Shown here piece after piece: positions 10,868-25,658 of a stretch of DNA of 64,000 nucleotides. How positions within the stretch are numbered: the stretch's first letter is position 1; every line of letters starts with the position of its first letter. This stretch comes from Candidatus Saccharimonadales bacterium (GTDB lineage: Bacteria; Patescibacteriota; Saccharimonadia; Saccharimonadales; 2-12-FULL-41-12). The notes below the pieces were generated by a model. The model was given only the letters and a program-made list of their open reading frames with translations. It made no database searches and was not told where the DNA came from. The stretch spans positions 384,387-448,386 of the forward strand of contig JBFIJM010000001.1 of the NCBI GenBank assembly GCA_041600715.1, in the 5' to 3' direction. The translations under genes were made by a program, and so were the position numbers.

Positions 10868-11803
10868 TTATTCGTTGATTCTTGACTGTAACTCAGTAAG
10901 AGAGATGACATCGGTCGGTTCTTCTATTGACCTCGTTAATCCATAGGCTGAAAACACTTCTTTTCTAGACTGACCTGGGAACTCAATTTCCATTAAATGA
11001 CGACTAATGACGTCTATTTTAACCCGTATCCCGATGTTTGCTGATTTTTCGTACTGCGCTGGATCAAGTAAGTCCTTATTGCCTACACCACTTACTTCTG
11101 CATACTCACGAAGTACTTCTACTAACGCTTGAGGTTTAATACTTATGTCCATAGTCATCACTGGTCTTAGATTTTGATAAGTAAGATCAGGTTGAGATAT
11201 TGTATAAACTCCCCTATCACGTATCATTCTCATGAGATTCTCTCGGTTCTCTTCGCTAAAATTACCCATCGGAATAAATGTAAAGATTGCTTCATTTAAA
11301 AGCTGTGGGTCACCGCCCTCATCTCCACTTCTTGTAGCCCATTTACCAATCACTTCATCAAAATTTTGACCCCCTGCTTGGCTAGGTGGCAGGGATATAC
11401 TACTGTAACGAACATAATCGACGTCATTTGTGCCAAGAGTTTCTGTAGTAATCGATGATTTTTCTCGATTGGCATCAATTTGATCAATGGTCGATTTAGA
11501 TTGAACCGCGGTTTCTGGACTAAATCTCACAAAAAATGTTTGCTTTACGTTTCGCGCGCCTTCAGTTTGAATAACGCTTCTTGCGATGCTGTCAGTTTCA
11601 AGTCCTTTCTCAACCATTCCATAGAAAACTTGATCTTCGTCGACAAATACTTGGTTATACCAAACATAGCTTCCAAGAAGATAGAGACCTAAGCCAACTA
11701 CTATTGGTGCTGTGATTAAAAATTTTGTAGAAGTTACAAACTTTCTTAGTGATGCGCGACTAATCTTTACTACCGGTTTCTTTAATTTAAACTGTTTTAA
11801 CAT
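10868..11803 (-). CDS. N-terminally anchored hypothetical exported protein
   Basis: Basic N-terminus plus TM (FLITAPIVVGLGLYLLGSYVW), then a 260-aa soluble domain; no family recognised. Confidence 0.55.
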   Translation of the reverse strand: MLKQFKLKKPVVKISRASLRKFVTSTKFLITAPIVVGLGLYLLGSYVWYNQVFVDEDQVFYGMVEKGLETDSIARSVIQTEGARNVKQTFFVRFSPETAVQSKSTIDQIDANREKSSITTETLGTNDVDYVRYSSISLPPSQAGGQNFDEVIGKWATRSGDEGGDPQLLNEAIFTFIPMGNFSEENRENLMRMIRDRGVYTISQPDLTYQNLRPVMTMDISIKPQALVEVLREYAEVSGVGNKDLLDPAQYEKSANIGIRVKIDVISRHLMEIEFPGQSRKEVFSAYGLTRSIEEPTDVISLTELQSRINE

Positions 11804-11823: not shown

Positions 11824-11841
11824 TGGTGGAGATACAGGGAC
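11824..11841 (-). repeat. detached direct copy of the tRNA-Ala 3' end (T-stem 3' strand, acceptor and CCA)
   Basis: TGGTGGAGATACAGGGAC is identical to 11993..12010 (18/18). Confidence 0.9.
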
Positions 11842-11992
11842 ATCGGCTACGCCTTCTTCGCTCAAAAATGCTCGATATGCATATCTGTGCGTTTCCTCGC
11901 TACGCCAAACCCTCGTTCGCTTTGCTCACTTACTCGGGTTTTCGCTGTATCCATTAATGATTGAACACTACCTTATGGGTGCGGTCAATCAT

Positions 11993-12069
11993 TGGTGGAG
12001 ATACAGGGACTCAAACCCTGGACCTCAGCGCTGCCAGCGCTGCGCTCTAATCAACTGAGCTATATCCCC
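11993..12069 (-). tRNA. tRNA-Ala(GGC), CCA encoded
   Basis: Hand-folded cloverleaf GGGGATA-TA-GCTC-AGTTGATTA-GAGC-G-CAGCG-CTGGCAG-CGCTG-AGGTC-CAGGG-TTTGAGT-CCCTG-TATCTCC-A-CCA; G3:U70 identity pair present. Confidence 0.9.
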
Positions 12070-12099
12070 GCATTAATAACATTGGTATGACTATTTTTC

Positions 12100-12117
12100 C
12101 TCAGTTGATTAGAGCGC
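12100..12117 (+). repeat. perfect 18-nt inverted copy of the tRNA-Ala D-arm (anti-D-arm in the leader)
   Basis: CTCAGTTGATTAGAGCGC is the exact reverse complement of 12042..12059 inside the tRNA gene. Confidence 0.9.
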
Positions 12118-12125
12118 ATGCGCAT

Positions 12126-12153
12126 ATATTAATTTTGCAGCCAGCTACGTCAA
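12126..12153 (-). promoter_or_regulatory. predicted tRNA-Ala promoter TTGACG-N16-TAATAT with GC-rich discriminator
   Basis: Minus-strand read AGCTCAGTTGACG-TAGCTGGCTGCAAAAT-TAATAT-ATGCGC. The -35 lies inside the duplicated tRNA 5' fragment. Confidence 0.55.
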
Positions 12154-12168
12154 CTGAGCTATATCCCC
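12150..12168 (-). repeat. detached direct copy of tRNA-Ala nt 1-19
   Basis: TCAACTGAGCTATATCCCC is identical to 12051..12069 (19/19). The downstream sequence does not fold as a tRNA. Confidence 0.9.
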
Positions 12169-12188
12169 ATATCAATGCCGTTATTGTA

Positions 12189-12220
12189 ACATAAAACTCG
12201 TCACCAAAATGATGACGAGT
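12189..12220 (-). terminator. rho-independent terminator of ligA
   Basis: Stem ACTCGTCA/TGACGAGT (12196..12220), followed on the minus strand by TTTTAT. Confidence 0.65.
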
Positions 12221-12236
12221 AACTGTCGTGCGCGCC

Positions 12237-12262
12237 CACCGCGCGGCGGTGTTTTTTGTTTT
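12237..12262 (+). terminator. plus-strand-oriented GC hairpin plus T-tract (orphan)
   Basis: CACCGC-GCG-GCGGTG followed by TTTTTTGTTTT on the plus strand; no plus-strand gene lies upstream. Confidence 0.45.
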
Positions 12263-12316
12263 GAATTATTTTTATTTTACAGCGCCGCATGCGCACGAGT
12301 ACATAAGCATTATACC

Positions 12317-16895: not shown

Positions 16896-16975
16896 CGCGG
16901 GGCGGGAATCGAACCCGCACGTCTTTCGACAGCTGATTTTAAGTCAACCTTGGCTACCAATTACAACACCCGCGC
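16891..16975 (-). tRNA. tRNA-Leu(UAA), type II, CCA encoded
   Basis: GCGCGGG...GTTGA-CTTAAAA-TCAGC, long variable arm GTCGAAAGACGT, T-arm GCGGG-TTCGATT-CCCGC. Confidence 0.85.
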
Positions 16976-17471
16976 TAATTGTCGATTTTGTTAATCTTAC
17001 TTTCTTATTTTTACCACGATGTGTGGGTTGTAGGCTATGACAATTTGGACAAAGTATCCTTAGATTCTCTATTCTATTATCTTCCGGTCGGCCATTAATG
17101 TGATCAAGTTCTAACGGTAAACGGCCGTCAACCGAGACTCGACTCCACCCACATAGTTCACATTCTGGCTTTTTAACACCCTCTTTTATTAATCTTTTTC
17201 TCAGCTTGTGACTTTGAGTAAGCTTACCATCGACCAGCAAGTCTTCCAGTGTTTGTCGCGGGACTCTAGGGTCAAACTTCCATCCAATGTTCCAGCCCTT
17301 ACCTCGAAAGTGTTCAGTGTTTAGTTTCAGTTGCTCAATTCGAGCTTTAACTTGGCGATAATTTCCACCGGCTGGCACTAAACCTAAGGTCCTTATAACA
17401 GATCTTGTGCTGTAAGACTCTTTTACAGCCAAAATAAGTTGCTCATCAGTCCAGGATCTTCGTTGTGGCAT
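16944..17471 (-). CDS. free-standing HNH endonuclease
   Basis: CELCGW...LELDHINGRPEDNRIENLRILCPNCH HNH/zinc motif. The last 32 nt, including the stop, lie inside tRNA-Leu. Confidence 0.8.
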   Translation of the reverse strand: MPQRRSWTDEQLILAVKESYSTRSVIRTLGLVPAGGNYRQVKARIEQLKLNTEHFRGKGWNIGWKFDPRVPRQTLEDLLVDGKLTQSHKLRKRLIKEGVKKPECELCGWSRVSVDGRLPLELDHINGRPEDNRIENLRILCPNCHSLQPTHRGKNKKVRLTKSTISAGVVIGSQG

Positions 17472-17595: not shown

Positions 17596-17656
17596 AGATA
17601 CCAATGTATTGTAACCCCTAAGGAGTAAAAAAGTCTACCGTCAGCAGATGGGCTCC

Positions 17657-18190
17657 TTAATTATTAGTTACAATATATCGAACAGCATCCAGCAAATTCG
17701 GAGCAGAATAGACAGCTTCAGGGGATACGACCGTTTTGTTTCGTGCAGTCTTAACCAAAATGCTACCTTTGCACTTGGCATTAATTCCAGCCATGATGTC
17801 AGACTGGTTATCTCCAACCATGTACACGTCACACAAATTAAGTTTAAGTTCTTCCGATGCTTTATTTAGCATCTTCGGGCCTGGTTTACGCCAGTCACTA
17901 GCTTGTTCTCCACTTTCTCCGTTCATATAAGTTTTCAAAACCTGCACTCCGCTTGGAGTAAGTCGCTTCAGCACTTCGTTATGGATTCTCCAGAAGTCTG
18001 ACTCTGTAATTCTACCTTCAGCGATTCCTGCTTGATTGGTTATTATTACAATATTAAAGTTATTATCAGCTAACAATTTTAAAGCTTCTAATGTGTCAGG
18101 GAATAATTCAATTTTCTCGAGCGTGTCGACTCGCTCATCTACAGGATCCTGTATTATAGTCCCGTCTCTATCTAAAAATACTGTTCTCAT
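17657..18190 (-). CDS. HAD-IIIA phosphatase (GmhB / histidinol-phosphatase-like)
   Basis: FLDRDGTI motif I, ITNQAGI motif II, GDNQSDIMAG motif IV. Confidence 0.75.
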   Translation of the reverse strand: MRTVFLDRDGTIIQDPVDERVDTLEKIELFPDTLEALKLLADNNFNIVIITNQAGIAEGRITESDFWRIHNEVLKRLTPSGVQVLKTYMNGESGEQASDWRKPGPKMLNKASEELKLNLCDVYMVGDNQSDIMAGINAKCKGSILVKTARNKTVVSPEAVYSAPNLLDAVRYIVTNN

Positions 18191-23244: not shown

Positions 23245-23263
23245 TTGGTGCGGGCAAGGAGAC
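23245..23263 (-). repeat. detached direct copy of the tRNA-Gly 3' end (inner att-like repeat)
   Basis: TTGGTGCGGGCAAGGAGAC is identical to 23401..23419 (19/19). Confidence 0.9.
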
Positions 23264-23365
23264 AAGCCGGAAATTGTTCAGCTTTCTCGGAGCGAGCTCC
23301 TGTGAGAGCCTCCAATTATCAAACTCACCCTACGGCTACGGAGTTTGAGACACCGCGACACAAAC

Positions 23366-23393
23366 CAATGAAAAACCCGGCTCTGAGGCCGGG
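23366..23393 (-). terminator. terminator of tRNA-Gly
   Basis: CCCGGC-TCTGAG-GCCGGG followed on the minus strand by TTTTTCATTG. Confidence 0.65.
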
Positions 23394-23401
23394 ACTTTCA
23401 T

Positions 23402-23477
23402 TGGTGCGGGCAAGGAGACTCAAACTCCTGGCCTCTTCCTTGGCAAGGAAGCGCTCTATCAACTGAGCTATGCCCGC
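23402..23477 (-). tRNA. tRNA-Gly(GCC), CCA encoded
   Basis: GCGGGCA-TA-GCTC-AGTTGATA-GAGC-G-CTTCC-TTGCCAA-GGAAG-AGGCC-AGGAG-TTTGAGT-CTCCT-TGCCCGC-A-CCA. Confidence 0.9.
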
Positions 23478-23501
23478 ATGAATAATTTAATTTTTAATTT
23501 C

Positions 23502-23519
23502 GCTCAGTAGATCGAGCGC
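23502..23519 (+). repeat. inverted copy (16/18) of the tRNA-Gly D-arm in the leader
   Basis: GCTCAGTAGATCGAGCGC compared with the reverse complement of 23451..23468 (GCTCAGTTGATAGAGCGC). Confidence 0.8.
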
Positions 23520-23528
23520 TCGCGCTAC

Positions 23529-23556
23529 ATTATCATTTTTGCAACGAGTTGCGCAA
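23529..23556 (-). promoter_or_regulatory. predicted tRNA-Gly promoter TTGCGC-N16-GATAAT
   Basis: Minus-strand read AGCTCAGTTGCGC-AACTCGTTGCAAAAAT-GATAAT-GTAGCGCG; collinear with the tRNA-Ala module. Confidence 0.5.
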
Positions 23557-23572
23557 CTGAGCTATGCCAGCA
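23554..23572 (-). repeat. detached direct copy (18/19) of tRNA-Gly nt 1-19
   Basis: CAACTGAGCTATGCCAGCA compared with 23460..23478 CAACTGAGCTATGCCCGCA. Confidence 0.85.
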
Positions 23573-23752
23573 TATTTTAATCCAGACAGCGGACTTCGTC
23601 CTTTTCCGCTGTGACCATGCTCGAAGTAAACTTCTGTGCGTGGTCTTGCTTCACCGAACTGCTGGTTCACCAAAGGCTCTCGCATCCAGTTCTCGTCGCC
23701 CAGACACTGCCATAATAAAACTTTATCTAGCCTAGAGGCTACAAAAGTTTTA

Positions 23753-23864: not shown

Positions 23865-23912
23865 GACACACGGAGCTTCAATCCGTCGCTCACTGGACTA
23901 ACGCTAAAGAGC
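23865..23912 (-). pseudogene. truncated tRNA-Phe pseudogene (nt 1-47; D-arm scrambled, no T-arm)
   Basis: 22 nt identical to 23781..23802 (anticodon arm plus variable loop), CTAAAGAGC 5' end conserved, D region diverged. Confidence 0.8.
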
Positions 23913-24940: not shown

Positions 24941-25035
24941 ATTGATATCGTGTAATTATACTATCTTGATTTAGTGATTATTTCTACTAGCTAGAGAGCA
25001 CGAGGTGCACTTGTTTAATATTGCAGTAAACTGCA

Positions 25036-25054
25036 CCAGCTGAGTTAATCATCC
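25036..25054 (-). repeat. detached direct copy (17/19) of tRNA-Val nt 1-19
   Basis: CCAGCTGAGTTAATCATCC compared with 24922..24940 CCAGCTGAGCTAATCACCC. Confidence 0.75.
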
Positions 25055-25426: not shown

Positions 25427-25620
25427 TAATGCTTGGGGTTTTATAGCAAAATAGTATTTTCATACTTACATATGATCAAATATATACCGTTTTTGATATA
25501 AATTTGACATAAAGCACAAGTTTAACAATATTGACAATAATACAAGACGTGAATACTGACGAGAAGACAGCGCCAGGGCTTCGCGCCTGACTAACTTCGC
25601 ATTGGAAGTTCAAGGCACTC

Positions 25621-25650
25621 AAACCAAACTAAAACCCCGACAAATCGGGG
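25621..25650 (-). terminator. terminator of tRNA-Leu(GAG)
   Basis: CCCCGA-CAAA-TCGGGG followed on the minus strand by TTTTAGTTTGGTTT. Confidence 0.65.
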
Positions 25651-25658
25651 TCATAGTT

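Follow-up and report, generated by a model that had tools for sequence, protein, structure and literature searches.

Candidate tRNA-end foldback cassettes on both sides of a tRNA-Ala(GGC) gene in Saccharibacteria

Introduction

The RtT elements are the 178-bp repeats of the tyrT-tyrV operon of Escherichia coli (Rfam RF00391; rttR). They are known mainly from enterobacteria and their relatives, and their function has been unclear since their discovery. RtT RNAs are described as products of tRNA processing, set free from the primary transcripts of tyrT and of other tRNA operons (PMC4986893). The anatomy of the element was verified by us on tyrV of E. coli (NC_000913.3). The units lie directly downstream of the tRNA in three tandem copies, and in each unit the final 19 nt are an exact copy of the tRNA-Tyr 3' end including CCA, starting from position 58. 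Within the unit, the T-arm and acceptor 3' strand are present as an inverted copy, followed by a direct copy of the 5' part of the T-arm; the inverted copy pairs with the terminal fragment as an outer helix with a CCACCA tail.

Template switching, by which quasi-palindromes are corrected and direct-inverted-direct rearrangements are produced, is an established mutational mechanism, and the split tRNA genes of Nanoarchaeum carry complementary leader and trailer sequences. We analysed a 64,000-nt stretch of a Candidatus Saccharimonadales genome (called the window below), where a first-pass annotation had described a tRNA-Ala gene lying between copies of its own ends and had offered either a self-targeting leader or scars of recombination as the explanation. 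In our reading, which we hold with moderate confidence, the gene probably has one cassette on each side, a 5' and a 3' type, which belong to a conserved family of "tRNA-end foldback cassettes" found across Saccharibacteria. Each cassette would combine some 18-20 nt copied directly from the adjacent tRNA end with the neighbouring arm in inverted orientation and a core of non-tRNA sequence. No description of tRNA-end foldback cassettes was found in a literature search. The first-pass annotation overlooked both the RtT-like 3' half and the family-wide occurrence of the arrangement.

Repeats at the tRNA-Ala gene

The gene and the tRNA-derived repeats around it are as follows.

11993-12069, minus strand: intact tRNA-Ala(GGC) with encoded CCA (ARAGORN; Rfam tRNA, 64.8 bits)
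12150-12168, minus strand: 5' fragment, an exact 19-nt direct copy of tRNA-Ala nt 1-19
11824-11841, minus strand: 3' fragment, an exact 18-nt direct copy of the tRNA-Ala 3' end including CCA
12041-12059 and 12100-12118: anti-D-arm as an exact 19-nt inverted repeat
12100-12123, minus strand: full anti-D-arm, 24 nt with one indel, the inverted tRNA nt 33 to 11

A single tRNA is called in the region by both ARAGORN and Rfam, which agrees with the earlier statement that the fragments do not yield a second one. The 19-nt copy of the 5' end was confirmed as exact, and it is embedded in a 27-nt match with 89% identity that reaches 8 nt into the leader. The 3' fragment corresponds to standard tRNA positions 59-76; it is exact as first described, but its distance from the tRNA is 151 nt instead of 152 (the start-to-start spacing is 169). 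Likewise, the perfect anti-D-arm is real but 19 nt long, one more than the 18 nt given before. In a blastn-short search against the whole window, the 19-mers have an E-value of 1e-4 and the 18-mer 4e-4, and the Smith-Waterman scores of the repeats are 36-41, whereas 60-100 shuffled flanks reach at most 19-25. All the repeats at tRNA-Ala are real and non-random. The sequences between them are 151 nt and 81 nt long, and their sole open reading frame is an antisense one of 44 aa.

Structure of the 3' unit

The downstream half of the locus comprises these features.

11824-11992, same orientation as tRNA-Ala: 3' unit, directly downstream of the gene
11950-11999, minus strand: trailer hairpin closing on the tRNA CCA end, with arms 11985-11999 and 11950-11964
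11936-11951, minus strand: remnant of tRNA nt 70 to 52 (T-arm and acceptor 3' strand) in inverted orientation
11904-11913, minus strand: direct copy of the T-stem 5' strand and T-loop, GAGGGTTTGG (from the sequence and predicted fold)
11868-11892, minus strand: conserved core hairpin ACGCACAG-ATATGCATAT-CGAGCAT (RNAalifold, nhmmer)

In order, the unit consists of the hairpin closing on CCA, the inverted T-arm, the structured core and the 3' fragment from position 59, the end of which is 20 nt before the ATG at 11803. The arms of the trailer hairpin are a 15-nt repeat with 87% complementarity, and hairpins that include the CCA were found directly after the tRNA in every 3' unit examined. The inverted T-arm copy reported in the first-pass annotation does exist as the piece at 11936-11951, but on its own it is weak, with a score of 18 that equals the 95th percentile of the shuffles. 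A corresponding piece has the same position in every other 3' unit, and it is clearer in some of them, for example the 28 nt at tRNA-Leu of L027. In the predicted fold, the inverted remnant pairs with the 3' fragment and becomes the outer helix of the unit, with GGATACAG (11945-11952) pairing with CTGTATC of the fragment in the minimum-free-energy structure. The GAGGGTTTGG element and the inverted piece are also predicted to form an AAACCC...GGGTTT hairpin, and copies of the T-stem 5' strand and T-loop are present in the Gly, Phe, Leu and Val units as well.

The core hairpin has 11 base pairs, 9 of them with compensatory changes (RNAalifold, 7 units), and matches the family model with an nhmmer E-value of 3.5e-24. 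The Ala, Phe, Val and Gly versions of the 3' unit are related to one another, with nhmmer values of 1e-13 to 1e-31. For the CACAG-hairpin-CGAG core, the hammerhead, the twister and domain V of group II introns were considered and rejected, as their consensus nucleotides are absent. The Rfam search gave the tRNA only; RAGATH-28 (16 bits, E-value 1.3) and several miRNA models were dismissed as chance matches or plain hairpins.

Structure of the 5' cassette

The upstream half contains the following elements in addition to the 5' fragment and the anti-D-arm.

12183-12191, minus strand: extended -10 element TGtTACAAT of P1, read from the sequence, now 14 nt upstream of the 5' fragment
12126-12153, minus strand: P2, a cassette-borne promoter-like site TTGACG-N16-TAATAT (consensus match)
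12137-12148, minus strand: mini-hairpin GTAGC-TG-GCTGC within the P2 spacer (alignment A4; family consensus GCAGC..GCTGC)
12119-12125, minus strand: GC-rich discriminator ATGCGCA after P2
12070-12099, minus strand: A/T-rich spacer from the anti-D-arm to the tRNA, with a weak proximal -10-like site TGTTAT/TATTAA (read from the sequence)

The layout in order is the 5' fragment, the GCAGC mini-hairpin, the A/T-rich -10, the GC discriminator and the anti-D-arm. The 5' fragment occupies the ancestral position of the tRNA 5' end, and its TTGA provides the -35 of P2. This is the promoter proposed in the first-pass annotation, and it is present at 12153-12126, but alone it is not above chance for the region (2 sites with 2.4 expected). 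Equivalent sites were found in 6/8 5' cassettes; P2 is undetectable in 2/8, and the -35 is weak at tRNA-Val. In 8/8 5' cassettes an anti-D segment closely follows a promoter-like core and its GC-rich discriminator. These 5' cores align across tRNA-Ala, tRNA-Gly and tRNA-Val, and the sequence of the A/T-rich spacer varies among the cassettes and is unconserved.

The mini-hairpin is paired in 100% of the cells of alignment A4, with compensatory change in 3/5 pairs, and these values were reached by 0/500 shuffles. In intergenic context its motif was found exclusively in tRNA 5' cassettes. The P1 element, which sits 20 nt before the intact tRNA in the cassette-free relative L009, is conserved in L015 and similar in L018, and P1 is predicted to be the ancestral promoter of tRNA-Ala. 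The orthologous 5' fragments match at 17/19 positions in L015 and 19/19 in L018.

Occurrence at other tRNA genes and in relatives

The layout recurs in the window at tRNA-Gly and tRNA-Val, and partly at tRNA-Phe and tRNA-Leu(GAG). At tRNA-Gly there are a copy of nt 1-18, a 17/19 anti-D match and an exact 18-nt 3' fragment; tRNA-Val has a copy of nt 1-19 carrying 2 mismatches, and an anti-D segment. An inverted T-arm with a 3' fragment was found at tRNA-Leu(GAG), and a trailer unit at tRNA-Phe. Upstream of tRNA-Phe there is also a partial copy of nt 2-48, which is different and irregular.

A sample of about 10 contigs was reached via two marker proteins. The cassette layout was found in eight other Saccharibacteria contigs (L015, L018, L019, L020, L021, L025, L026 and L027), and the architecture extends to five tRNAs and to nine genomes. 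The comparison with related genomes proposed in the first-pass annotation gave orthologous cassettes of the tRNA-Ala locus in L015 and L018. Tandem arrays of 2 units were found in L018, L020 and L021, and the presence of cassettes is patchy among relatives. A LigA search of genome contigs returned only Clostridia and Bacteroidota sequences with about 40% identity. Two viral contigs hit by the core motif CGCACAGAAGNNNNCTTCGAG were treated as chance: the match in L023 is in an apparent coding sequence, and that in L024 is beside a coding region with no adjacent tRNA or tRNA-derived arms.

Filled and empty sites

Empty sites were identified in L009, L016 and L017 for tRNA-Ala and in L027 for tRNA-Gly, and direct duplications of 18-20 nt flank the filled sites. 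The tRNA-Ala of relatives ends 19-24 nt before the ATG of the downstream gene, which is where the window has its 3' fragment; similarly, the start of tRNA-Gly in L027 is the exact position of the Gly 5' fragment in the window. The direct fragments coincide in position with the tRNA ends of cassette-free relatives, which places the cassettes at positions 18-20 of the D-loop and 58/59 of the T-loop in the ancestral gene. The intact tRNA lies between the two fragments. The picture of empty and filled sites would equally be given by precise deletion.

These exact boundaries could suggest that the cassettes are non-autonomous mobile elements, which would insert at the D-loop (18-20) or the T-loop (58/59) with an 18-20-bp target duplication and bring along a promoter or terminator so that the tRNA stays functional. 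Their patchy distribution, the same core at different tRNAs, the constant duplication length and the coincidence of the outer boundary with the mature tRNA end are consistent with this. By the usual marks of MITEs and insertion sequences, target-site duplications and empty sites are present, but the ends of the insert are not inverted repeats, no other copy of the insert exists in the 64-kb window, and the family members at other tRNAs are diverged rather than near-identical. Moreover, the tRNA-specific arms are unexplained by simple transposition, the orthologous units are ancient and not recent, no transposase, recombinase or reverse transcriptase was found among the 6 window ORFs scanned, and the patchiness is equally explained by precise loss through the direct repeats. 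We therefore regard mobile cassettes as quite improbable. An IS200/IS605 or TnpB right-end guide was also considered and set aside, as neither element ends nor a transposase were seen. An invertible switch between the 19-nt inverted repeats was rejected, since inversion would leave a 5'-truncated tRNA.

A tRNA 3' segment that is repeated directly and runs up to CCA is also the classic signature of an att site, and the tandem units resemble tandem integrations, as would be expected of attL/attR remnants of deleted integrative elements (phages or islands) that used the tRNA gene as their attachment site. However, merely 151 nt without any gene separate the repeats, the identity begins at position 59 and not in the T-stem, and tyrosine integrases do not make a 5'-end duplication or inverted copies. 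At all loci the size is equally small, with a core that is conserved and structured. We consider this origin extremely unlikely. A retroviral-PBS-like origin, in which 18 nt would be the length copied up to m1A58, was rejected since the boundaries are equally explained by an integrase or by selection; no reverse transcriptase or other support was found.

Conservation

Synonymous sites between the compared genomes are saturated, with an identity of 0.23-0.34. Despite this, the cores of GlyW and GlyL027 are nearly identical over about 60 nt, and the Phe units of the window and L020 align with a z-score of 24.6. The fragments and arms follow the lineage-specific substitutions of the local tRNA. 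This conservation shows that the cassette cores are under purifying selection, and together with the compensatory pairs and the tracking of the tRNA it indicates maintained elements, not decaying scars.

The recombination-scar alternative of the first-pass annotation is thereby not supported. It would have the repeats as functionless, neutral by-products that arise when a fragile, highly transcribed tRNA gene undergoes local duplication or template switching. The direct-inverted-direct layout is indeed what template switching produces, the irregular upstream copy at tRNA-Phe suggests a general tendency to duplication, and the anti-D segment has decayed in L015 and L018. On the other hand, the architecture recurs at five tRNAs and nine genomes, and the cores are conserved with covarying pairs across genomes that are saturated at synonymous sites. 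This reading is already contradicted by the conservation data and very improbable; it could be rescued only if the loci were recent horizontal transfers and not orthologues.

Within the preferred cassette reading, the tracking of the own tRNA would reflect concerted evolution, which would also account for the perfect copies in the window. It may proceed by unequal exchange between the direct repeats, which fits the tandem 2-unit arrays, and by template switching across the inverted repeats.

Predicted leader pairing with the D-arm

In the folding prediction, the anti-D pairing beats the cloverleaf by 18-24 kcal/mol at tRNA-Ala of the window (ddG -18.5 to -24), and the predicted ddG is -11.9 kcal/mol in L015. 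The cofold of leader and tRNA suggested in the first-pass annotation is thus strongly favourable here, but the values for AlaL018 (-3.3), GlyW (-5.1) and ValW (-6.3) are near those of the cassette-free controls (-2.8 and -4.5) and overlap with them. The match to the D-arm is 12/19 in L015 and 15/18 with an indel in L018, and it is degenerate in ValW as well. Overall, the anti-D segment is degenerate in 3-4 of 8 cassettes, while each segment matches its own tRNA and the D-arms are invariant among orthologues. The exact runs are 19 nt in AlaW, 16 nt in GlyL026 and 15 nt in ValL025. The self-targeting leader proposed earlier therefore stands in part: all of the 8 cassettes retain the segment and the predicted pairing is strong here, but the perfect 19-bp match is unconserved and the advantage is small in most relatives.

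A cis-antisense lock would be the regulatory interpretation, where the anti-D leader pairs with the D-arm of the same pre-tRNA, holds it in an inactive duplex and controls tRNA maturation. It might be released by processing or by a competitor, for example the 5' fragment in P1 transcripts. The retention of the segment despite saturated divergence and the large predicted energies in the window and L015 argue for it. In addition, the anti-D-arm reaches past nt 20, beyond the 5' fragment, so only the tRNA can pair there; it lies at the predicted P2 start after the GC discriminator, and the three-segment layout of fragment, anti-D and D-arm resembles the logic of an attenuator. Against this, besides the degenerate complementarity and small energies noted above, the perfect match is equally explicable by templated correction of a quasi-palindrome, and the predicted P1 would also transcribe the 5' fragment, a competitor for the anti-D segment. 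We judge a lock to be unlikely. In the cassette reading, the leader/D-arm pairing is a built-in property of the cassette that is predicted to be strong enough here to block the cloverleaf, and it may be either a regulatory lock or a tolerated by-product of the foldback.

Proposed model and implications

For the cassette family, we propose that the 5' cassette may act as a promoter module, in which the -35 comes from the D-loop copy, the spacer holds a palindromic hairpin, and an A/T-rich -10 is followed by a GC discriminator. Transcription from it would start at the anti-D-arm or immediately upstream. On the other side, the 3' cassette would give a hairpin closing on CCA and then a structured trailer RNA ending in ACCA, which, by analogy with E. 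coli RtT, may be released upon tRNA processing. A more far-reaching reading is that Saccharibacteria possess an undescribed class of tRNA-end-mimicking cassettes, with a promoter module on the 5' side whose transcript would open with an antisense D-arm as a cis "lock" on tRNA maturation, an RtT-like trailer RNA on the 3' side, concerted evolution that keeps both matched to their tRNA, and a possible ability to move between tRNA genes. This full combination seems to us rather unlikely. If it were true, E. coli RtT would be one enterobacterial instance of a much wider and functionally important kind of tRNA-operon element.

The occurrence of units with RtT anatomy in a deeply divergent, genome-reduced phylum, at many tRNAs and with strongly conserved cores and co-evolving arms, argues for a useful role of tRNA-end foldback units. 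The Saccharibacteria cassettes offer a comparative handle on what this role is. With the mirror-image 5' unit, which combines a predicted promoter with an antisense D-arm, leader-controlled tRNA folding or processing becomes testable in genetically tractable Saccharibacteria. For annotation, tRNA fragments beside tRNA genes in Saccharibacteria should not be read as boundaries of prophages or islands.

Comparison with known systems

Template switching explains the perfect 19-nt inverted repeat beside degenerate orthologues as well as the direct/inverted/direct order. However, it is a mechanism of change and not an element, and the conserved non-tRNA cores are unexplained by it. Split tRNA genes of Nanoarchaeum are similar in that tRNA pieces adjoin complementary sequences, whereas here the tRNA is intact and the 18-19-nt fragments cannot assemble into a tRNA. 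As with att sites in tRNA genes, the tRNA stays intact beside an insertion that is polymorphic among relatives and has a directly repeated tRNA 3' end at its boundary. The cassettes differ from them by having no cargo or integrase, and by their 5' counterpart, inverted copies, constant size of about 100-170 nt and conserved structured core.

In anatomy, the 3' unit resembles RtT. In the window it also lies directly downstream of the tRNA in the same orientation, and tandem units occur in both systems. Both units end in a copy of the tRNA 3' end, of 18 nt from position 59 in the window and 19 nt from position 58 in E. coli. The inverted copy of the T-arm and acceptor strand is the outer helix in the predicted fold of the window unit too, and in both it is accompanied by a direct copy of the T-arm 5' part. 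The link is architectural only: no sequence similarity to E. coli RtT was detected (Smith-Waterman z-score below 2, no match by nhmmer), and no match to RF00391 (gathering score 45 bits) was found at E<=10 in searches of 3 kb, 186 nt and 326 nt. A resemblance of the module cores to E. coli RtT noticed by eye (GAGC..AGCGA and CGAAGGGCGAAGC) was rejected on the same grounds. For RtT, no counterpart of the mirror-image 5' unit is known to us. Unlike the E. coli element, the Saccharibacteria units open with a hairpin closing on CCA, have a CACAG-hairpin-CGAG core and are spread over many different tRNAs, each with arms that fit its own tRNA, and the Saccharibacteria 5' unit is a mirror image of the 3' unit that carries a predicted promoter.

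Repeats at the tRNA-Ala locus

The locus contains the following features.
11993-12069, minus strand: tRNA-Ala(GGC)
12150-12168: exact copy of tRNA nt 1-19 (5' fragment)
12100-12118: anti-D, a perfect 19-nt reverse complement of the D-arm (12041-12059)
11824-11841: exact copy of the final 18 nt including CCA (3' fragment)

The first-pass annotation had described these direct copies and, as 18 nt, the inverted repeat, and the repeat comparison bears them out; the anti-D match lengthens to 24 nt with one indel (tRNA nt 33 to 11). They are not chance matches, as indicated by blastn-short E-values of 1e-4 to 4e-4 against the whole 64-kb window and local alignment scores of 36-41 versus a shuffled-flank maximum of 19-25. 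The proposed promoter TTGACG-N16-TAATAT is present but, taken by itself, does not exceed the chance expectation for the region, and the degenerate inverted T-arm copy in the trailer was found but is weak by itself. The earlier observation is confirmed, while its interpretation, either a self-targeting leader or recombination scars, is only partly supported. We lean slightly towards a conserved family of tRNA-end foldback cassettes (copied and inverted tRNA-end pieces plus a non-tRNA core), the 3' one similar to RtT, the E. coli tyrT-tyrV repeat RNA, and the 5' one its promoter-bearing mirror image. The exact tRNA-end copies would then be cassette boundaries, held matched by concerted evolution.

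Distribution of the cassettes

The window belongs to a lineage of small-genome Saccharibacteria (TM7), and homologues of its slipin protein carry the names Saccharibacteria or Patescibacteria. Comparison loci L008-L017 were found through the 311-aa gene downstream of tRNA-Ala, L018 through one metagenome pattern scan, and L019-L022 and L025-L027 through the slipin gene adjoining tRNA-Val/Phe/Gly. Between the window and L019-L027, synonymous substitution has reached saturation (third-position identity 0.23-0.34, conserved four-fold-type residues), and so intergenic similarity retained at that distance implies constraint or continuing re-copying. When all tRNAs of the window and of the fetched loci were scanned uniformly, the cassettes proved, as judged from sequence, to be a family trait.

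5' cassettes (tRNA; 5' fragment; anti-D)
Window Gly(GCC), minus strand; 23554-23571, nt 1-18, 1 mismatch; 23502-23520, 17/19
Window Val; nt 1-19, 2 mismatches; degenerate
L015 Ala; 17/19; 12/19
L018 Ala; 19/19; 15/18 + 1 indel
L026 Gly; 18 exact; 16 exact
L025 Val; 20 exact; 15 exact
L027 Val; 19/20; 10 exact

3' units
Window: Gly (3' fragment 23246-23263, minus strand, exact 18 nt), Leu(GAG), Phe
L018: Ala (two units)
L019: Val
L020: Phe (two units), Val; 17646-17830, minus strand, Gly-type unit with no adjoining tRNA
L021: Val (two units)
L025: Leu
L027: Leu, Gly, Phe

By the same scan, tRNA-Cys and tRNA-Leu(TAA) of the window are cassette-free, as is tRNA-Leu(CAG) wherever found (L020, L021, L025, L027).

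The window tRNA-Gly has the full pair, 5' and 3' (23246-23571, minus strand). At 24941-25054 and 25551-25658 (minus strand) tRNA-Val has only a 5' cassette and tRNA-Leu(GAG) only a short 3' unit, whose inverted T-arm is exact over 12 nt and whose 3' fragment measures 11 nt. At 23865-23912 and 23575-23752 (minus strand) the window tRNA-Phe has an irregular partial copy upstream (nt 2-11, a scrambled D region and an exact 22-nt anticodon arm) and a trailer unit with orthologues in L020 and L027. This unit ends in just 7 nt of 3' fragment, after which the Gly cassette begins. Upstream of the tRNA-less L020 unit only ...GCTGCACCA remains, although the unit itself is well preserved in comparison with the window (z = 26); either the tRNA was recently lost or the unit can persist on its own. 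Tandem 3' units occur in L018 (615-885), L020 (10914-11218) and L021 (6090-6411); each unit opens with its own CCA-closing hairpin in L018 and L021, and the second L020 unit has none. This suggests growth and shrinkage by unequal exchange.

Cassette boundaries and anatomy

The tRNA-Ala end lies 19-24 nt ahead of the downstream-gene ATG in L009-L014, L015, L016 and L017; the window has the end of the 3' fragment, not of the tRNA, 20 nt ahead of that ATG (11803). Upstream, tRNA-Ala of the cassette-free L009 starts 20 nt past an extended -10, TGcTACAAT, and in the window and L015 the 5' fragment starts 14-16 nt past the same element, TGtTACAAT (P1; window 12191-12183). A second filled/empty pair is provided by tRNA-Gly: in L027 (empty) ...gtctggaactaaatttat runs straight into the tRNA start GCGGG, and in the window (filled) ...gtctggattaaaatat is followed by the 5' fragment (GCTGGC...), a 76-nt insert and the tRNA. 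By this sequence comparison, the fragments mark where the ancestral tRNA ends stood.

In the 5'-cassette alignment, direct tRNA nt 1-18/20 come first and the mini-hairpin GCAGC..GCTGC second. Next are an A-rich stretch that contains TAAT and one rich in GCGC, then an anti-D specific to the adjoining tRNA and, before the tRNA itself, a variable A/T-rich spacer. Pairing is 84% in the fragment/anti-D helix and 100% in the mini-hairpin, where 3/5 pairs show compensatory change; these values were reached by 0/500 shuffles. The hairpin-plus-A-run motif in intergenic context is confined to 5' cassettes. The 3' unit opens with a CCA-closing hairpin (CCA:TGG), followed by the inverted tRNA 3' part, a loop and a direct copy of the T-stem 5' strand with the T-loop (49-57). 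Next comes the core of 55-75 nt, which carries the motif CACAG-hairpin-CGAG, and direct positions 59-76 complete the unit. Compensatory changes affect 9 of the 11 consensus pairs of the core hairpin, and the 4:1 excess of G-U over A-C pairs favours an RNA in the orientation of the tRNA.

Conservation and matching to the local tRNA

The 3' units reach nhmmer E-values of 1e-13 to 1e-31. Between the window and L020, z is 24.6 for the Phe units and 26.1 for the Gly units, and relatedness extends to units of different tRNAs (Phe-Val z = 12-14, Ala-Phe z = 6). The Gly-unit core of the window and L027 is near-identical over ~60 nt despite saturated synonymous sites, while its inverted arm, direct arm and 3' fragment differ as the tRNA-Gly genes do (T-stem GGAG/CTCC versus GGGG/CCCC; acceptor strand TGCCCGC versus GACCCGC); the 5' fragments likewise track the difference GCGGGCA versus GCGGGTG. 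Since arms and fragments vary with their own tRNA, the tRNA-derived parts are kept matched to it, and we infer concerted evolution of these parts. Unequal exchange between direct repeats fits the one- versus two-unit arrays, and template switching across inverted repeats fits a perfect window anti-D beside degenerate L015 and L018 orthologues. Recombination scars, the other earlier reading, are contradicted by selection on the cores and co-evolution of the arms with the tRNA; the repeats also occur in some relatives, tRNA-Ala cassettes being found in L015 and L018.

Predicted pairing of the leader with the D-arm

Equilibrium folding of pre-tRNAs (kcal/mol; MFE; cloverleaf forced; ddG, free fold minus forced fold)
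Window Ala, from P1; -72.8; -54.3; -18.5
L015 Ala; -64.2; -52.3; -11.9
L018 Ala; -62.9; -59.6; -3.3
Window Gly; -59.3; -54.2; -5.1
Window Val; -60.5; -54.2; -6.3
Window Phe; -50.9; -48.7; -2.2
L009, cassette-free control; -65.9; -63.1; -2.8
L016, cassette-free control; -56.9; -52.4; -4.5

From the start predicted by the first-pass annotation, with a stricter fixed cloverleaf, the MFE for the window tRNA-Ala is -53.6 versus -29.8, and its D-arm is predicted to pair with the leader at probability 0.94-1.0. The self-targeting leader is thus partly supported, in that the predicted pairing beats the cloverleaf there, but the predicted advantage is small in L018 Ala and in window Gly and Val; predicted pairing is very strong at the window tRNA-Ala and not uniform across the family. 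The anti-D is retained everywhere, directly after a promoter-like core whose discriminator is GC-rich, and so may have a regulatory role. Use of the promoter and processing are inferred, as would be any regulatory lock.

Neighbouring elements

The stop codon of ligA and the tRNA-Ala promoter are separated by a strongly conserved ~110-nt element (window 12195-12312, minus strand). It comprises a start resembling TATAAT, an invariant 8-bp stem TCGTGCGC/GCGCACGA around an A-rich loop, an invariant GGTGGGCGCGCACGA and a terminator hairpin. Identity between the window and L015 is ~93% by eye, and the element also occurs in L018, L009 and L016, where it accompanies the tRNA, not ligA. No Rfam match to it was found, and it resembles a small RNA that has escaped annotation. 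Elsewhere, tRNA-Cys and tRNA-Leu(TAA) have between them a 175-aa HNH endonuclease ORF (16944-17471, minus strand; PF01844, E 1.6e-5), the final ~30 nt of which overlap the tRNA-Leu 5' part, and L021 has a LAGLIDADG-like ORF flanked by two tRNAs. In this group, genes for free-standing homing endonucleases seem to adjoin tRNA genes.

Comparison with E. coli RtT

The 19-nt 3'-end copy of tRNA-Tyr in RtT repeats is well known. In the E. coli K-12 tyrV region taken as reference (NC_000913.3 1286709-1287243), there are three RF00391 matches of 134-138 bits. The exact final 19 nt of tRNA-Tyr closes each of the three units, and every unit has inverted tRNA nt 77 to 56 followed by a direct partial T-arm copy; the outer helix of the structure given by Rfam is formed by the inverted piece and the fragment, with a CCACCA tail left over. 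With these three parts, RtT is itself a tRNA-end foldback unit. RF00391 had no match in any Rfam search of the Saccharibacteria units, and no sequence similarity was found between their 3' units and E. coli RtT, so homology is not demonstrable. RtT RNAs are reported to be freed from tRNA operon transcripts in processing (PMC4986893). The anatomy of the Saccharibacteria 3' units is the same as that of RtT.
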